This document shows, in pieces, positions 5,200-59,762 of a DNA stretch of 64,000 nucleotides. Position 1 is the first letter of the stretch. The number at the start of each line of letters is the position of its first letter. Below the pieces are notes generated by a model. The model was not told where the DNA came from. It searched no databases and was given only the letters and a program-made list of their open reading frames with translations. The DNA comes from Octopus vulgaris (Eukaryota): NCBI GenBank assembly GCA_951406725.2, contig OX597828.1, forward strand, positions 32,426,001 to 32,490,000. The letters are read 5' to 3'. The position numbers and the translations under genes are program-made.

Positions 5200-5785
5200 C
5201 CAGAGAAACACCAGTCTCGCAAAACCTATCACTTGTGATCACACGAAGAAGAGCTGACCAACCTATGCCTTTTTCAAACCATGAATGCTCATTTTTTTCC
5301 AGTTAAGGAATACTCTACAAACACGATGGTGCCGTACGCTATGCCTACTCTTAGATGCTTGTTGTACGGCGAAACTGGCAGCAATGCTCGGGTATTTTAC
5401 GAGCAGGAGTAGACCTGCTCGTACCACACCCGAGCATTTCCGCCATGTGGAGTTATGTTGAACAGCCGCTAACACGTGTATGACAAATTCATCGCAAAGA
5501 TTTCCCCACGCCTTCCTTTGGTCAGAAAATGTAGGCAGCGTACCGCTTCTACTGATATGGAGAAAGAGGTTGTATTGGGCACGCAACCTAAAATACTAAC
5601 GACAGGCTATTCCGTTGACGGCCAAGTCCTCATCGACTTTTTTTAACATCCCGTTTGGAAAGGACGTATGCGCTGCCCCACGCATTAATATCATCAAAGG
5701 TAGATGAATGTGGCGAAGATTGTCCGTCTGAGTGGGTCTGTTCAAAGTTGGCGCTTGTAGGCTGAGGAGTAAGAAGAAGAGAAAA
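5200..5785 (+). mobile_element. Decayed RTE-clade LINE, RT C-terminal fragment
   Basis: Plus-strand LRCLLYG-ET (VLLYGxETW) and IWRKRLYWARNL (IxxRRLRWAGHL), ending in aagaagaag repeats. Confidence 0.55.
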
Positions 5786-18693: not shown

Positions 18694-18859
18694 ACAAAAT
18701 AATATATATATATATTCGAGATAATGGTGTCATTGACACCCAAAGGTTTCAGGTAGTGCTGAATAAGTGCTATAGATAGATCATAGTTAAGTTTTAGATT
18801 AGGTAATATAGCGAATAAAGGGTTCAACGTTGGTTCTAGGTCTGCGTGTGTATATATAA

Positions 18860-19241
18860 GAATTTTTTGCGTAATAAGATAAAAAAACCAAGGCTGTATA
18901 TATATATTAAAGCATTTATAGATAGAAGGTCTTACAGCTGTTTCTAGGATATTAATTTATAATATCCCTTCATCGGAGACGGTGTGAGAGGAGACTTAAT
19001 TTTTCATGAATTTTTATGACTCAATTTTTTAAATTCAGAACGGAACTGTAAATGTAACGAATAACGTTGGTCTAGACTTAATTTTTCGTAGATTTTTATG
19101 ACTTAATTTTTCCTCTCAAACCGTCTCCGATGAAGAGATATTATTTATTAATATCCTAGAAACATCTGTAAAATCTTCTATCTATAAATGCTCTAATATC
19201 TATACAGCCTTGGTTTTTTTATCTTACTACGCAAAAAATTC
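18860..19241. mobile_element. Fold-back element in (TA)n; probable Penelope-like pseudo-LTR relic with HHR
   Basis: Inverted arms 18860-18992 and 19111-19241 with several mismatches. It is flanked by TA repeats, has an HHR motif in each arm, and the spacer carries a ~38-bp direct repeat. Confidence 0.75.
18929..18980 (-). ncRNA. Minimal type I hammerhead ribozyme motif
   Basis: GUCU-CCGAUGA-A-GGGAUAUU(loop)AAUAUCCU-A-GAAA-CAGCUG-UA-AGAC. Stem I is GUCU/AGAC, stem III is palindromic, and the cleavage triplet is GUA. The + strand copy at 19123-19174 is mutated. Confidence 0.75.
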
Positions 19242-19508
19242 ATATATATATATATATATATAAAATCTTTTATTGTCACACAGTTTTCAGCCATTAGACT
19301 GCAGCTAGGACGAATCATCTCCTTGAAGTATTTAGTCAAGCATATTGACACAAATTCACATTCTGATCTGTGATTCTGTGTTTAACTGATCGGTATTTAA
19401 TCTATCGTTTTCATGTTCTTTGCTGACGTGCTCGCTCACCGGAACACACGGAGAAAACAACAGTGATGGTCAAGATGTGGTGGAGAACAAATACAAAGTT
19501 ACACTCAC

Positions 19509-21421: not shown

Positions 21422-22010
21422 TACATATGCATATATATACATAGAAATGTATATATGTGTGTGGTAAATGGTGGAGGGGCATATATGTAAATTTAAAGTA
21501 AAATTAAATGAAACATTACTGTGATAGCTTGGAAAAAGTCAGTTTTTCTTCAAAGGGTATTGGTATTAAGCAAATACTAAAGTACTAAACAACTGAATGC
21601 AGACCACAATAAAAAATATACAAGGCTGCATTAGAAGATGAACTGAATAACGAAATAAATCTAATGTAATGGAAGATGATATGGAGCCAAAGTATAGAAC
21701 AAAACGAAACGAAGGACTGACGCGTTCGTCAGTAAGATAATGATTACTTTCGAAATTAATAAACTGATCCATTTCTGGTTAATATATTTAGACTGGTATC
21801 AGCGATGCTGTAGCAACAATTTAAATGTGTTACAGGAAAAAAAGCGCCCAATAACGTATTACATAGCGTGGAAAAACAACGTCACTGCTTGAAAAAAAAA
21901 AAAAATGTATCCAATGAGTATCCACCAATGTCCTGTTTCTAAGCACGCAGGCACACGCACACACGCGCACACATACATACAAACAGCTATATTTTAATAA
22001 AAAATGTTTA

Positions 22011-22054
<44 letters not shown>

Positions 22055-22084
22055 TCAAAATAAAAACATGATGCCAAGGATTCA

Positions 22085-22162
22085 GCGGTACATATGTTTC
22101 GGGCCTCTATTAGACGGATTTATAACAATGCATAATGTGTGTCTATGGCCTTCTTCAGCCGC
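22085..22162 (-). ncRNA. Minimal type I hammerhead ribozyme motif (mirror copy)
   Basis: Exact reverse complement of 22198-22275. Confidence 0.8.
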
Positions 22163-22197
22163 GCACAATTACTACGTCCTTGAGGTAGTAATTGTGC

Positions 22198-22275
22198 GCG
22201 GCTGAAGAAGGCCATAGACACACATTATGCATTGTTATAAATCCGTCTAATAGAGGCCCGAAACATATGTACCGC
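22198..22275 (+). ncRNA. Minimal type I hammerhead ribozyme motif
   Basis: GCGG-CUGAAGA-A-GGCC...GGCC-C-GAAA-CAUAUG-UA-CCGC; predicted cleavage after 22271. Confidence 0.8.
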
Positions 22276-22309
22276 TGAATCCTGGCATCATGTTTTTATT
22301 TTGATTAAT

Positions 22310-22358
<49 letters not shown>

Positions 22359-22365
<7 letters not shown>

Positions 22366-22654
22366 ATCACGTGACCGACCCGTCCATCAGATGTAGTTAC
22401 ATATCGCTGGTTCGCATTGTTTTAGCCTTCGCGTGACGCCACCCCGCTGGCTAAGCGAGCAGGCCAACAGAAGAAAGAGTGGGAGAAAGAGTGGTGAAAG
22501 AATACAGCAGTGTCACCCCCCCCCCCTGCCGGAGCCTCGTGGAGCTTTTAGGTGTTTTCGCTCAATGAACACTCACAACGCCCGGTCTGGGAATCGAAAC
22601 CGCGATCCTACGACCGCGAGTCCGCTGCCCTAACCACTGAGTCATTCCGCCTCC
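22359..22654 (-). mobile_element. tRNA-derived SINE family 3
   Basis: Minus-strand head tgactcagtggttagggcagcggac...ggtttcgattccc (A and B boxes); highly similar to 48156-48447. Confidence 0.88.
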
Positions 22655-22745
22655 TTAAAAAACACCCCCCAGGATATCATACAGTGAGATTGAACCTGGA
22701 AACACTAACTGCGTTGCGAGCTTCTTCTCCACAAGGCGACGCACG

Positions 22746-22797
<52 letters not shown>

Positions 22798-23231
22798 GAT
22801 ATATTCAAATACATATATAAGAATACATAATTACACACACATATGTATACATATATGACCTTGAGTTTGTGGGCATTTGCGGGTGTTGATACCCGCACAT
22901 ATGTACGTGTGCATGCACATGTATAAAAGCGTGTGGGTATATATAACCCCTATATATTCACAGATGAGCACGTTGGTCGCCTGCCTACAAAATATTTTCA
23001 GAAAAAGTGACGGATGACTGAATGAGCAGCATGGATGTAAAGTTCAGCTATTGTTAATCCGAGCAGTAGTTGACAAAATGAAGGAGGAAAAATACAGGAA
23101 GTTCTGTATAGATTGATTATTGAAAAAAACTTCTTGAGTAAAACACCCTTTTAGGTATTAGAAAACTCGTGCATCAAAATTGCTTTCAATAAATTAGCAG
23201 CCATGCTATGCCAAATGTGTGTGTGTCTTTC

Positions 23232-25156: not shown

Positions 25157-25688
25157 CAACAACAACAACAACAACGACGACGACGATGACGATGATGATG
25201 ATGAGGATGATAATAAATACAATATAAAATTAGCAGAAAAGGGAGAAAACTTTTTATCAACATACAATTTGACCAGCATCGGTTAATTATATTTTAATAC
25301 AAAACAGGACATTGCTTAGAAACGTTTCGGTTACCATTGTCAGTCGGTGCCTCCAAAGAAATTTATGAGAATAATATTCGTCATTTTTTTAGCAAATCTG
25401 ATCTACTACATCGTGCTTCATCAGAGTGAATACAAATACATAAATTAAAAGAAGAGAAGAGGGAAGAGGAAACAACAGGGCCTCGATATGAGCTGGTCAA
25501 TTTGTATGATGATCAAAAGATTTACCATTTTCTGCTTACTTTAAATTTGATTCCTGATAGACTTTTGTTTGTTCTGTTATTACTTGTATCCTATGAGCAT
25601 AGTGTCCTAGCATAACTATGCCCAGGGTGAACATGGATAATTCATAGCGGTAGTGATAACGGACATTCTTATTCCTTAGACGGTATCT

Positions 25689-26300: not shown

Positions 26301-27140
26301 CTAGCAGAATTGCCCGGCGTTGCTCGGGGCTGAATTGCTTGAAAGTACTGTTAATGATTGCACTGAATTATGATGATTATTCAGGCAAATATTGATATAA
26401 GTTTACGGTGGGAGATAAGGACTTAACGATCAAACGTGTGCCATTGCATTGTTTTGGGGGAACCAAATTTCTGATGAGCATTATAGGGGCACCAACTTTA
26501 AGTTTGAGAAAGTGTGGTGGTAGTCCGGGGTGCTCAAAGGAATTGAGTACCTCTATTGGATAGTTGATGACGTCCTCTGGGTCAGGAGTTGTATCGATAG
26601 ACTGATATACATAGACTTCCCCAGGAATGAGTTTTAGCATTTCATCATTAATATGGTGAACAGTTTTATTCCTCGGGGCCAGTATAGCCTTTTTGCCAAT
26701 CCAATCCATATTCTGATAATTAGCTTGTAGATCTGGGAACACTGCATCTCTGAGATCAGAAGGCGTCTTAACAATGTTACAAATGGAATCGATGGCAATA
26801 TTACCATTTTCATCCCCTGGTATTTTGCCTTCGCCAAGTGCAAGGAGGGTGTGAAGAAATGCTGCTGATGTGATATTACGTCGCATATGAGCACGCATAT
26901 TGGTGTGAAGTTTGAGAGTTACTTCCCTTTATTGAAAAAATATGCATTAAAATGGAAAAAAATGATGGTAAATTATTTGTAAAATCATAGACTCATCGTA
27001 GACGCGCGCTAATACCCAGAAGGGCTCGATATGAATCACGACTATAAGATACCCGGTTTTAGTTAAACTGCATCGCAAAATGTGGGAGTAGTTAGGAATC
27101 TAAATCGGAGTAGACAGACACACAACCTTTCTTTTATATG
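26301..27140 (-). mobile_element. Internally deleted Helitron with Pif1-type helicase fragment
   Basis: 3' end ccccgagcaacgccgggcaattctgCTAG|T. Positions 26940-27127 match the Helitron copy at 38312-38592 in reverse orientation. Confidence 0.85.
26377..26920 (-). pseudogene. Helitron RepHel Pif1-like helicase fragment
   Basis: ORF 26377..26898 has KAILAPRNKTVHHIND and GLPPHFLKLKVGAPIMLIRNL...CNGTRLIV, which are hallmark Pif1/Helitron helicase motifs; upstream reads L..NMRA. Confidence 0.9.
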
Positions 27141-30332: not shown

Positions 30333-31320
30333 CTTTATTCTTTTATATATTTCATCCCTGAGGTTGCAGCCATGCTGGGGCATCGCCAATGTAATCACCT
30401 TTTAATTGGCCAATTCTATGAGACTTTGGTGAAGGAGGGAGTTCGATACCGCTGCCCGCTTTCACTTTCCTGCCCTGATATCGGTTCATCTGGGATCTTG
30501 GATAGCAAGAGGTCAAGTTGTTTCTTGATAACATCTACTCCTACTCCATGGAGATCTCTCAGATATTTTGGCAATGAGTTAAATATATGTGGGCTCTTGA
30601 ATCGCAAGCTATTGCAGTATATGGTCCTCGCCTTAGATGAGGCAGCTCCGATTTTGCAACAGTGCAGTGACTTCCACTCCGAGGTCTGGTATAACTCTTA
30701 ACTCCAAAGTTTTGTGCCAGCCCCTCCAGTATCTTCCACACGTATGCCACTGCATACTTCTCCCGTCTTTGCTCCAGAGATTACAGTCGTAGGTATTTCA
30801 GCCTCTCCGAGTAGTTCAACTGTTTCTTTGATGCAATCTTCCTCGTGTAGTATCGCTATTATCGTGTAGCTCTTCTATTAATCCTACAGTGTAACCACGG
30901 TTGAGAGCAGTACTCCAGACGGCATAGGATCAGAATAGTTTCCTGATCCCTCGTTCTAAATGTTCTAAGAATCCATCCGACCATTCCCTTGCACACTGCC
31001 ACCATATTGGTGATATGCATGTGAAACGAGGCGTTGTTAATCATATCAATCCCAAGATCACTACCATATGTGATGCTAGGAGTACCGCTCATTTTGGTCC
31101 AAACTATTGTTGTTGGGATTTCTGAGGACCAATTAGCTGCTTGTAATTTGCGTGCATTAAATTGCATGTTGTTGTCTTCAGCCCATTTAGAGATGGCATT
31201 TAGGTCATTCTGTAGTAGATTCGTATTGTCTTTGAGAGTTTGCACTATTTTTGTGTCGTCAGCATAGCTACTAAGTGCTGCTGTCTTTTTAACTGATGGC
31301 ATGTCTGTAAGAGCCATGAT
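30330..31320 (-). mobile_element. 5'-truncated CR1-group LINE (RT C-terminus plus 3' tail)
   Basis: YADDTKI..LQNDLNAISKWAEDNNMQFN, RLEYCSQPW, YVWKILEG and FNSLPKYLRD..KKQLDLLLSKIPDEP, with frameshifts. The 3' tail lies at 30330-30390. Confidence 0.88.
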
Positions 31321-31861
31321 ATAAATATATATATATAATTAAATTAAATGGTAGTTCGATCCGAATGAAGCTAGTACTGAAAGTTGGTAATCTTTGAGCA
31401 TACACACAGCTAGTATAGGTGACAAAAAATAAAGAAAGTTTAATAAATGTTGTATGTTATAGAATTCTTCCCATGTGGGAATAAGTGTAAGCTTCAGTAA
31501 GATGACCGTCACTATACAACCCATGGTTTAGCAATAAACTTGTCCAAATATGCAGCAAATTCCAACTGTGTTAGGAATGGAATAATAAATCAAGATCTCA
31601 CTTGTTTCACAGCTAATCAAAATGTGTTAGACGATTGTAGCAAGCACAAAACCCGTTTAACTAAAAGTCATGTCCGATTACTCTTTTGTTGTGCACCTCC
31701 TCGTGTGGAGACCAGTAAATGATTATTTTAGCCACAGTACAAATGGCAAGTTGAACAAATAAAACCAAACAGCCAATAAGGTTAAATAATATTAGCATAC
31801 AAGTAATCATACACATACACATATATATAGGAGCGTGTGTATAGTTTAATAAAATACAGAA

Positions 31862-33021: not shown

Positions 33022-33059
33022 GTCAAAAATTGTGAAGCATGACTGTCAACACTACTACA

Positions 33060-33104
33060 TGAACCCGAAGATTGCAGAATTCAATGCATGAAAGTACTAG
33101 TTCA
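33060..33104 (+). ncRNA. Minimal type I hammerhead ribozyme motif
   Basis: UGAAC-CCGAAGA-U-UGCA(gaauucaa)UGCA-U-GAAA-GUAC-UA-GUUCA. It has a 5-bp stem I and a palindromic AGUACU stem III, and lies about 40 bp from a (TA)n tract. Confidence 0.7.
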
Positions 33105-33284
33105 ATCAGAATGAATATTTAACATTCTACTATTTCATTTTATTTTATTCAATTATAATATATTATCTTATAATATATCATTATAAGATTGTAAATAAAA
33201 CGTGAAAATCAGACAAGGTTGGAATTCTTTTTATTAATATATTCTTCTATACACAAACACACACACCCATATATATATCTATCT

Positions 33285-34479: not shown

Positions 34480-34740
34480 TATATATATATATTTAAGTAG
34501 GTGAATGGATTATCCTAGCATGGAAAATTCGGTTAACCGATACCTGGGTAGTAAATTCACGTCAGAAAACAAAATTTGTGTTCGTCTTGTGGCTGAAAGA
34601 GGCTCCTTATCTTTCCTGATGAGAAGATGGCATAATGCACCATTTATCCCTTCGGAATTAAATCAAAGCCGTCTTCGAAACATGTGTCGGGAGTAAAGGA
34701 ATTTTCTTAAAATCTTCGTTCGACTCCATTCTTTCATTTA

Positions 34741-34804
<64 letters not shown>

Positions 34805-34807
<3 letters not shown>

Positions 34808-35363
34808 AATAATAAAAGGGTAAAATCAATTAATTATTGATTAATAATTTTACCAAGTAGTGTTCAGTATGTAAAAAGACCATTTACGGTATATTAAAAA
34901 CATTACGTTATATAATTAGGGTTCAGTAAAATAATTTACTTTACCACACACCGAACGTTTAGAAATTGCAGTCGTGGGTGGACGAGGGATGATACAAAGC
35001 ATCATTCGTACTTTTTGAATTCGTTAGTACTGCCGGTCGAAGATGGTTTGTCTGGGATTACTCATATCAGACGGGTATGTTCGATTTTTAGTGCTCTCAA
35101 ATTCAAACCTAAAGAAACCTGGGGCTGATGACGGAAATGTTGATCTCTATATCCAACTAATCCAGAAACGGTGTTCTCAAGTAATCGATGCACGTGTGAT
35201 CTTTCGTTATTTTTCCCTCTATACCTGCGTGAATTATTTTTGAGTATACATTGTCTGGGAGACTTTTCTTATAGTAGAGGAAATAGCTAAAATTTTTTTA
35301 CTGCCGAAAAGTTCGGTGTGTGGTAAAGTAAATTATTTTACTGAACCCTAATTATATAACGTA
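34805..35363 (+). mobile_element. Penelope-like relic with inverted terminal segment and degenerate HHR
   Basis: Perfect 53-bp inverted repeat at 34904-34956 and 35311-35363. It starts at (TA)n. Internal uGGGG-CUGAUGA-C-GGA...UCC-A-GAAAC-ggu-GUU-CUCA at 35120-35180. Confidence 0.65.
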
Positions 35364-41010: not shown

Positions 41011-41014
<4 letters not shown>

Positions 41015-41390
41015 AATATTAGGGAATAAATCCAAATTTACAGGGAAAAAATCAGATTTAGGATTAAATCCAATTTTATAGTAAAATATTATAAAATATT
41101 ATTAGAGACAAAACCACTATTTTGCAAAACAAACAAAGAAACACTTAATCAATACATAAAATTTTAATAAATAGTCAAAAAAACCGCCACTACAATTGTT
41201 TCTTGTCTTGATCGACAATCTTCAGGTGGACTTCCAATAAGTCAGTTTAAATTATGAAGATTGTCGATCAAGACAAGAAACAATTGTAGTGGCGGTTTTT
41301 TTGACTATTTATTAAAATTTTATGTATTGATTAAGTCTTTCTTTGTTTGTTTTGCAAAAATAGTGGTTTTGTCTCTAATAATATTTTATA
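41011..41390. mobile_element. Fold-back element in (TA)n with HHR; probable Penelope-like pseudo-LTR relic
   Basis: Inverted arms 41090-41224 and 41255-41390 (about 3 differences) with a 30-nt spacer, an ~80-nt extension on the left, and (TA)n flanks. Confidence 0.85.
41187..41229 (-). ncRNA. Minimal type I hammerhead ribozyme motif (canonical core)
   Basis: CCAC-CUGAAGA-UUGUC(gaucaa)GACAA-GAAA-CAAUUG-UA-GUGG; all three stems pair perfectly. Confidence 0.85.
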
Positions 41391-45891: not shown

Positions 45892-47210
45892 CAGGGTTCC
45901 CCCAAAACATGTACTCAATCTTTGACTTCCCAGCACTAATGTATTTTGTGTTCAAGCAGATGGTTATTGATATACATACAATCCTAAATATCTAAATTAA
46001 ATTCAGGAAAATATATTCGTGTAGAAACGATTATTTATTGTCATTTAGAATTATTTAATGTTCTCTCTCCTTCCTGCGAGTTCGCAAATGTTCAAACTGC
46101 TTTTCTTTATTTTCCAAACAAAGCTAACGTCCAACAATGGATTCGACAACATTGTCAAACATTGCATTTGGAATTGCAAGGCATTGTATTCGAATTTCAT
46201 TTTTCAAATCATCAATTGTCACAGGTTTTACAGCGTAAACTTTATCTTTGAGATGTCCTCATAAAAATAAAAACCCATTGCCGTGAGGTCTAGAGAACGT
46301 GCAGGAAATTCAAGGCTACCTCTTCTCTCAATCTATTTGTTTGGATTTGTTGCATCGAGGTAAGCCCGTACATCCCGATGGTAGTGAGGGGGAGCTCCAT
46401 CTTGCTGGAAGTAAATCTCCTCGCCCCCAAACATCTCTTCAATTCGTGGACCGACATTTTCCACCAGTAAGTTTCAGTAAACTGGGCCACTGACAGTTTG
46501 GTAAAAAAAGAAATTGGCCCAACGATACCCAATGTTGACATCCCATACCATACTGTTACGCCTAGTAAGTTCAGATGGTGCTCCTTAGTAAAATGTGGAT
46601 TTTCACGGGTCCAGTGTGTACAATTTTGTCGGTTGACTGAACCATTTAACTTGAAAGTGGTCCCATCGCTCCATAAGATTTTCTCAGGAAACGTTGCATC
46701 CTCTGCGAATTAGTTCAGATACCATTTGCAAAATTGAAATCAGGATCATCTTCATTGAGAGCTTAAATTGAAGTTGGAACGTAACTTTTCCAATGAGCTC
46801 GTTTCAATATCCGATGAACTCTCGATTTGGGGATTCCTATCTCACGACTCAATTGTCTTACGAATTTCTTTGGGGATCGGGAAAGCGTTTCCATTAATTG
46901 GGGGTGTCTATTGGGACTGGTGGATGTTCGTAGCCTTCCAGAACTTTCTTAACAGTTCCGTACGCTTCAAATGTATCTCTGATGCAAGCAATAGTGCGTC
47001 GTATTGGTGGTTTCTTGTGAAACTGTCTGTTAAGTTGCGTTTGCACTTCAGTGACATTTTCGTGCTTCCAGTAGCAATTTAATATATTTTTCCCTCAAAG
47101 CTTGGTTGTGCATTTGCAATTGTGAAGGGTTCATTGTGTTTGAAATAAGAAAATACAATGCATTAGCAATCGTGTGTCAAAGAATGAATACATCTTATTG
47201 GGACACCCCG
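45892..47210 (-). mobile_element. Full-length decayed Tc1/mariner-superfamily transposon (rosa/DD41D- or maT-like) with TIRs and TA target duplication
   Basis: TIRs TA|cagggttcccccaaaacatgtactcaatctttgac and rc TA|cggggtgtcccaataagatgtattcattctttgac. Motifs [36 protein letters not shown] and [17 protein letters not shown]. Confidence 0.88.
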
Positions 47211-48155: not shown

Positions 48156-48447
48156 TCACGTGATCACGTGACCGACCAGACCATCAGCTGTTGTTACACA
48201 TCGCTGGTCACAATGCGTTCGCATTGTTTTAGCCTTCGAATGACACCACCCCGCTGGCTAAGCGAGCAGGCCAACAGAAGAAAGAGTGGGAGAACGAGTG
48301 GTGAAAGAGTACAGCAGGGATCACCACCCCCTGCCGGAGCGTCGTGGAGCTTTTAGGTGTTTTCGCTCAATAAACACTCACAACGCCCGGTCTGGGAATC
48401 GAAACCGCGAGTCCGCTGCTCTAACCACTAGGCCAGTGCGCCTCCAC
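48156..48447 (-). mobile_element. tRNA-derived SINE family 3
   Basis: Head tggcctagtggttagagcagcgg...ggtttcgattccc; 3' end cacgtgatcacgtga then (TA)n. Confidence 0.88.
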
Positions 48448-55945: not shown

Positions 55946-56350
55946 TATTTCTTTATTGGCCACAAGGGGCTAAATATAGAGGGGAAAAACAAGGACAGAC
56001 AAAGTGATAAAGTCGATCACATCGACCCCACTGTGTAACTGGTACTTATTTAATTGACCCCGAAAAGATGAAATGCAAAGTCGACCTCGGCGGAATTTGA
56101 ACTCAGAACTTAAAGACAGACGAAATGCATATTTCTTTACTACCCACAAGGGGCTAAATACAGAGTGTGCAAACAAGGACAGACAAACGGATTATGTCGG
56201 TTATATCGATCCCAGTGCGTAACTGGTACTTATTTAATCGACCCCGAAAGGATGAAAGGCAAAGTCGACCTCGGCGGAATTTGAACTCAGAACGTAGCGG
56301 CAGACGAAACACCACTAAGCATTTCGTGCTGCGTGCTAACATTTCTGCCG
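55946..56350 (-). mobile_element. Two head-to-tail reverse copies of SINE family 2
   Basis: Copies at 55946-56125 and 56132-56350, both containing aagtcgacctcggcggaatttgaactcagaac. Confidence 0.88.
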
Positions 56351-59435: not shown

Positions 59436-59762
59436 AAAGACCCCCTTCGGTCATGAATGACCATGGGATTGCACCTAGAAAGTTACCCTCCTAGACACAA
59501 GTCCGGGCAAGGTTGTTTATGGAAGACCAGCAGTCGCCCATGCATACCGGCCTCCCCTCTCCACGCCACCAGTGTTATCCAAGGGAAAGACAAAGGCCAA
59601 TACAGCTTGGCACCTGTGACGTCGCAACTCATTTCTACAGTTGAGTGAACTGGAGCAACGTGAAATAAAGTGCCTTGCTCAAGAACACAACACGCAGCCC
59701 GGTCCGGGATTCGAGCTCACAACCTCACGATCGTAAGCTCGACGCTCTAACCACTGAGCCAT
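59436..59762 (-). mobile_element. tRNA-derived CORE-like SINE family 4
   Basis: Head tggctcagtggttagagcg...gagctcgaatccc, then CORE-like gtgttcttgagcaaggcacttt...ctgtagaaatgagt. Confidence 0.8.

Follow-up and report, generated by a model that had tools for sequence, protein, structure and literature searches.

A near-perfect palindrome in the Octopus vulgaris genome is probably a recent head-to-head insertion of two truncated, hammerhead-bearing repeat ends

The palindrome at positions 22051-22308 of the 64-kb stretch of Octopus vulgaris DNA analysed here (the window) most likely consists of two 5'-truncated copies of the hammerhead end of an abundant repeat. They lie head-to-head in a (TA)n tract and were probably laid down in one recent Penelope-type (PLE) insertion, a reading to which we assign a probability of roughly 0.78. 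Its identity as a product of PLE-type insertion, whether the parent was autonomous or not, can be asserted with somewhat greater confidence, and the joining route proposed below, by nick priming and a template jump, stands at about even odds. Inverted PLE-type insertions are a known pattern, and 22051-22308 is an ordinary further instance of it.

The palindrome is present in the assembly and spans 258 nt. Alignment of its arms (125 and 124 nt) gave 124 identities, no mismatches and one gap, so that the arms differ by a single indel around a 9-nt loop (22176-22184), as an earlier note on this DNA had described; folding placed two weak pairs inside the loop. The same note had set the element within (TA)n, which was borne out by TRF runs at 22014-22051 (100% matches) and 22308-22359, and the part of the left run at 22014-22050 is the likely target. 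The symmetry ends at (TA)n, and the outer flanks are unrelated to each other. No ORF was found in the 258 nt. Both arms stop at the same position of the family and the tail is absent, and no target-site duplication is readable; any would be hidden by the (TA)n runs. The palindrome occurs only once within the window, which is AT-rich (GC of 0.29-0.41 per 2-kb bin) and dense in microsatellites (105 TRF rows). Directly behind the right (TA)n run begins a separate repeat (22360-22654), which recurs at 48157-48445 with 84% identity. Both of these copies open with a 14-nt palindrome directly behind (TA)n, and their 3' part resembles a tRNA-like SINE segment that is also found at 59677-59762 (71%).

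The composition of the palindrome was read from public contigs of the repeat family. Contigs from four runs were compared with 22146-22307, comprising two deep DNA runs (X9 and X3), one small DNA run (X1) and one presumed RNA run (X5); 482, 230, 9 and 18 contigs aligned, respectively, with subfamily variants present. Part of the palindrome was found in 21 of the 24 listed runs, covering 10 studies, and none of these 21 was listed as RNA. Among the loose ends listed, at least 13 (X9), at least 12 (X3), at least 3 (X1) and at least 2 (X5) contigs left the family upstream at 22176 and entered non-mirror sequence with a nearly identical consensus in all four runs, and these counts apply to the listed contigs, beyond which 25 more loose ends and 708 more contig pieces exist. 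One X1 contig reached 250 nt upstream of 22176. Since contigs run through the loop into non-mirror sequence, the loop is the start of a 133-nt 5'-truncated copy. Its nine bases (22176-22184, + strand) are native family sequence and the first bases of the longer, direct copy, which starts at 22176, 26 nt upstream of the hammerhead core, and has its remainder at 22185-22308 (+). The left arm (22051-22175, - strand) is a second copy, an inverted family 3' end whose truncation lies 9 nt deeper, at 17 nt upstream of the core. The loop is therefore merely the offset between two truncation points.

At the other end, the family continued behind 22305 in at least 5 (X9), at least 1 (X1) and at least 1 (X5) contigs, with AC-rich sequence in X1, so the outer ends of the palindrome are not family termini. 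Both outer ends correspond to the family point about 38 nt behind the hammerhead cut site. Two single bases tell more about the arms. An extra T behind 22282 was present in 26 (X9), 16 (X3), 1 (X1) and 3 (X5) family contigs and is kept in the left arm, so it is the right arm (22185-22308, +), ending without a tail at the left arm's family position, that lost one base. At 22253 (+) both arms hold G, with the mirror C at 22107, where the family contigs read A in more than 99.9% of the summed depth in both deep runs (G share of 0.00033 in X9 and 0.00013 in X3). Depth was 0 over 22146-22169 in all four runs with no joint listed, a hole that proves nothing about the junction, and was 11.2 at 22170-22175 in X3. 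Contig building may drop single-copy links inside a high-copy repeat, and the hole is weighed neither in favour of an artefact nor against a fixed hairpin. Every run contained less than half of the palindrome's words; the best share, 0.42, is near the fraction of its 31-mers (0.49) that avoid locus-private sites, and it is given no weight as evidence. A rise of depth just upstream of the core was considered as a truncation cluster and rejected as an edge effect, depth not being copy number. Pattern scans of metagenome, viral and prokaryote collections returned no match in any of them, and no literature on this repeat family was found within the limited set searched.

By descriptor match, each strand carries a minimal type I hammerhead motif with a predicted cut site, at 22198-22275 (+) and 22085-22162 (-); the hammerhead read earlier on both strands is thus recovered at motif level. 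On the + strand, helix I has 4 bp (22198-22201/22272-22275), the core segments CUGAAGA and GAAA occupy 22202-22208 and 22260-22263, and helix II has 4 bp (22210-22213/22255-22258) with a 41-nt interrupted insert. Helix III (22263-22270) is an 8-nt palindrome, ACAUAUGU, with a self-duplex of -7.0 kcal/mol. Positions C3-A9, G12-A14, A15.1-U16.1 and H17 of the core are intact in the descriptor match, and the G10.1-C11.1 pair is ambiguous, with two registers possible. The cut is predicted between 22271 and 22272 on the + strand, in agreement with the ribozyme 5' end that the note had put at 22272, and between 22089 and 22088 on the - strand, and the predicted site lies about 38 nt from the (TA)n junction.

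Such motifs are far more frequent in the window than in shuffled sequence. The strict descriptor, which had been tightened after the first hits had been viewed, found 4 motifs in the window versus a mean of 0.04 (maximum 1) over 100 dinucleotide shuffles made block by block; when C was also accepted at core position 4, the figures were 6 motifs versus 0.02 in shuffles. The minimum-energy fold of the isolated 78-nt motif is a three-way junction, and it is not more stable than shuffles (z 0.43). None of the 9 listed variable places of the family fell within the 13 core positions, an outcome compatible with chance (P 0.25). Rfam reported no family at its gathering score for the whole window, no hammerhead family among 40 matches up to E=10 for 21900-22800, and no match for the isolated hammerhead motif. 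The MIR538 and MIR396 matches in 21900-22800 were rejected, since they fall far short of the gathering score and are due to the hairpin. The six hammerhead motifs of the window could not be aligned with MAFFT, and a 15-nt upstream motif had no match within the window.

The fold of the transcript was then computed for the full element and for shorter RNAs. For the 258 nt as a whole, the computed structure is a rod (-229.9 kcal/mol). When helices I and II were enforced and the core was kept unpaired, the probability of the hammerhead fold was 5e-91 for the full RNA, 2e-7 for RNA from 22160, 0.003 for RNA from 22176 and 0.26 for the bare 78 nt. The antisense arm is transcribed first, whichever the direction, and in five of five growing prefixes all nucleotides of the ribozyme arm were computed to pair with it. 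With the antisense arm ahead of the ribozyme arm in synthesis and a probability of about 1e-90 for the hammerhead fold, a two-state switch is not predicted; in read-through RNA the mirror arm would smother the ribozyme. The earlier proposal that the RNA can fold either as a rod or as a hammerhead therefore finds no support in these computations. The full element is a plausible substrate of ADAR and Dicer. Minimal PLE hammerheads have been described as inactive in cleavage when present singly and as weakly cleaving in tandem dimers (PMC4209133), and an inverted pair presumably cannot make a tandem dimer in cis.

The layout was compared with PLE insertions as described in the literature. PLE insertions show strong 5' truncation, and many come with an inverted truncated copy alongside and with a tail at one end; they are biased to (TA)n, and with the exception of Naiad and most Chlamys elements their pLTRs contain hammerheads (PMC8557442). 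Head-to-head inverted pLTRs are the commonest arrangement, with self-priming proposed as the origin of the head-to-head junctions (PMC3846280), and the one-sided tail is optional (PMC3846280, PMC8557442). Like the inverted insertions of Craig et al. 2021 (PMC8557442) and Arkhipova et al. 2013 (PMC3846280), 22051-22308 combines an inverted 3'-end copy, 5' truncation and (TA)n, and it carries a hammerhead, which in theirs lies in the terminal repeat. Unlike the insertions in those accounts, it has no ORF, no direct second pLTR, no tail and no junction palindrome. A check of traits found a hammerhead near the repeat 3' end, 5' truncation, an inverted further-truncated copy and a (TA)n target at 22051-22308, and of the optional one-sided tail no trace. 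The family sequence past both ends, together with the truncated inverted copy and (TA)n, supports a recent inverted PLE-type insertion, one of two options that the note had left standing. A Neptune, Hydra or Poseidon parent would be likelier than Naiad, since Naiads are reported to be without canonical hammerheads (PMC8557442).

The motif itself points in the same direction. Minimal PLE hammerheads have a 4-bp helix I, a short palindromic helix III and an extra base after position 9; pairs on opposite strands 100-700 bp apart have already been reported, and most such motifs were attributed to truncated PLEs (PMC4209133). The motif at 22198-22275 resembles the metazoan PLE hammerheads of Cervera and de la Pena 2014 (PMC4209133) in its intact core, 4-bp helix I, palindromic helix III and extra A after position 9. 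It differs from them in helix II, which has 4 bp and the 41-nt interrupted insert instead of 7-8 bp. The hammerhead motifs of the window were not found in one supplementary table of PMC8557442.

Protein searches were directed at 81 reading frames of the window, among which Pfam gave no PLE family match; it returned only Pif1 and RVT_1 remnants and three weak unrelated matches. No RT or GIY-YIG sequence could thus be tied to the family from these frames, which counts against the PLE reading, as do the missing tail, the unreadable target-site duplication, the 4-bp helix II and the ambiguous G10.1-C11.1 register. The Pif1 remnant (26380-26928, -; helicase 2B domain, PF21530, E 3e-15) is probably a Helitron-type fragment. 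The decayed reverse transcriptase fragment at 30862-31338 (-) matched RVT_1 with E 8e-5, below the curated cut-off, and is LINE-like by eye. A reading frame at 46293-46709 (-) had no Pfam match and by eye looks like what we take to be a decayed Tc1/mariner transposase. The protein-like extension at 18705-18881, part of the neighbouring insertion described below, had one match, to an unrelated repetitive protein, and no real homologue.

Further insertions of the same build lie in the window. Between its (TA)n blocks lie 35 segments that measure 60-1500 nt. Three of these are long head-to-head repeats, all three with a hammerhead motif, and their spacers measure 9, 30 and 118 nt. The insertion at 18715-19242 is older (121/131 identities, 118-nt spacer with internal direct repeats), with a hammerhead carrying C at core position 4 in both arms and a left extension of about 145 nt. 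The insertion at 41012-41386 is young and of another family (130/131 identities, 30-nt spacer); its hammerhead is complete on one arm and truncated inside the core on the other, and an extension of about 75 nt is present on the left side only. A fourth head-to-head insertion (34805-35363) has arms of 57 nt and is extended by 99 nt on one side; at 35125, on one side only, it shows a loose hammerhead-like motif. The four are mutually unrelated in sequence, lie in or beside (TA)n and all have their 3' ends facing the flanks; the three neighbours have longer spacers than 22051-22308 and a one-sided extension, which 22051-22308 lacks. Two more hammerheads (33065 and 34616) sit in non-inverted stubs behind (TA)n. 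The stub at 33022-33270 has C at position 4 of its hammerhead at 33065, a core variant thereby seen in two unrelated families of the window. The solo stub at 34492-34744 lies between (TA)n runs, has a 9-bp helix II with a long insert, and adjoins 34805-35363. The sequence of helix III varies among the window families, yet it is palindromic or nearly so. These comparisons place 22051-22308 at the young, short-spacer end of a common head-to-head pattern, with the variability of the fold-back centre seen across families only and not within its own.

Other repeats of the window were also recorded. A degenerate 57-nt inverted repeat at 25221-25547, beside a (TAA)n array, had no hammerhead motif in a loose search, and a short imperfect palindrome (80% over 70 nt) lies outside (TA)n at 5376-5445. 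A tandem pair of a 184-nt repeat at 55946-56309, presumably an octopus SINE by its resemblance, recurs around 53600, 58490 and 8000.

In the route that we propose, the PLE protein would nick both strands of (TA)n, and from each nick reverse transcription would begin at one shared internal site, some 38 nt past the hammerhead cut site. The two cDNAs would halt early, just upstream of the hammerhead, and one would then jump onto the end of the other, copy it and seal the hairpin. A purified PLE protein, for which a dimer is predicted, prefers AT-rich DNA, of which it cuts and extends both strands; its reverse transcription starts at internal sites in an AC-rich stem-loop, the same sites on both strands, the tail is the stretch between two start sites, and hammerhead cleavage is unnecessary for insertion in vitro (PMC11167929). 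The product at 22051-22308 is likely a dead stub, with no ORF and with the ribozyme predicted to be masked by the antisense arm. L1-type twin priming joins adjacent segments and was rejected, as both arms here are the same 3' segment.

A different course of events is possible, if rather doubtful. Only one truncated copy would have been inserted, and its mirror arm would stem from one cDNA or antisense template that primed itself, or later conversion within the hairpin would have made the arms alike. The shared G at 22253 implies one RNA, a rare source locus or later arm-to-arm conversion. Both arms hold a base that makes up less than 0.04% of family depth, which a single template would explain at once, and two cDNAs primed separately account for the G no better than a twice-copied template or later conversion does. 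Self-priming has moreover been proposed for head-to-head PLE junctions (PMC3846280). The junctions there carry palindromes of 18 and 38 bp, however, whereas the loop of 22051-22308 offers a 2-bp stem with a terminal mismatch, a poor snap-back primer, and snap-back is less favoured for this reason. The 30- and 118-nt spacers and one-sided extensions of the neighbours also fit two separately primed ends better.

The change at 22253 admits a bolder reading, in which both arms were copied from one RNA whose A had been edited to inosine and in which very abundant PLE families, making a new perfect hairpin at many insertions, are a main source of the long dsRNA behind the extreme A-to-I editing reported for octopus; we consider this improbable as a whole. 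A sense-strand A-to-G change would agree with editing of the template, but one transition is insufficient to show editing. Palindromic repeats rank among the best substrates of ADAR, the dsRNA load of octopus is exceptional, and Penelope is heavily edited in lizard (PMC5625713). The palindromic Harbinger repeats of Xenopus (Porath et al. 2017, PMC5625713) are likewise self-folding units of about 200-260 nt that need no neighbouring inverted copy. They belong to a DNA transposon with a palindromic consensus, unlike the family of 22051-22308, which is non-palindromic and whose hairpin was made at insertion.

That the palindrome is a fold-back artefact, made between two (TA)n runs by a chimeric read or by the assembler, appears quite unlikely. 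In its favour, the nearly identical arms differ only by a T lost from TT, an error often made in sequencing, and assemblies are known to have difficulty with the inverted structures of PLEs (PMC8557442). Against an artefact, the symmetry stops at (TA)n between unrelated outer flanks, and the two arms have distinct truncation points separated by native sequence. Neighbours of like build have diverged arms (121/131 and 130/131), so such structures exist and age in the Octopus vulgaris genome.

Very unlikely, finally, is the other option of the earlier note, a self-contained, palindromic, non-coding MITE- or retrozyme-like element whose replicating form is a fixed hairpin bearing ribozymes on both strands. 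The near-perfect symmetry, the matching outer ends, the missing tail and a core intact on either strand agree with it, and a small subfamily could hide among the 25 loose ends and 708 pieces beyond those listed. Yet the loop belongs to the family's own sequence, every listed loose end at 22176 enters non-mirror sequence (at least 30 contigs, from 4 runs), the window has the element just once, and the full unit is predicted never to adopt the hammerhead fold (5e-91). Nor can inverted copies form the tandem dimer that minimal hammerheads need (PMC4209133). A MITE would have fixed termini and a fixed palindromic consensus; this family extends past the 3' end, and upstream without mirroring. Retrozymes are head-to-tail tandems (PMC7229834; 10.64898/2026.07.22.740005), with units of 150-450 bp, unlike the head-to-head pair of partial copies at 22051-22308, which is single-copy in the window and has no circle-forming layout at the locus. 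The likeness to non-LTR retrozymes (Cervera and de la Pena 2020, PMC7229834; Li et al. 2026, 10.64898/2026.07.22.740005) lies in being non-coding, in the type I hammerhead and in a presumed dependence on PLE protein, and the parent of 22051-22308 could be non-autonomous.

Taken alone, the palindrome is of little weight, as it is likely retroelement debris of a described pattern. Read as an inverted PLE-type insertion, it is a clean, young example for a question left open in PMC8557442, the origin of PLE inverted insertions. Its identical outer ends, 9-nt inner offset, lack of junction homology and shared rare change can be counted over many copies, and such counts would separate two-ended priming from self-priming. 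The case also indicates that, where an animal genome has ribozymes on both strands, they can be a by-product that silences itself; if transcribed, such stubs would provide dsRNA without further steps. If the edited-template reading were true, the hairpin would be a record of PLE integration in which an ADAR edit was written into DNA twice.
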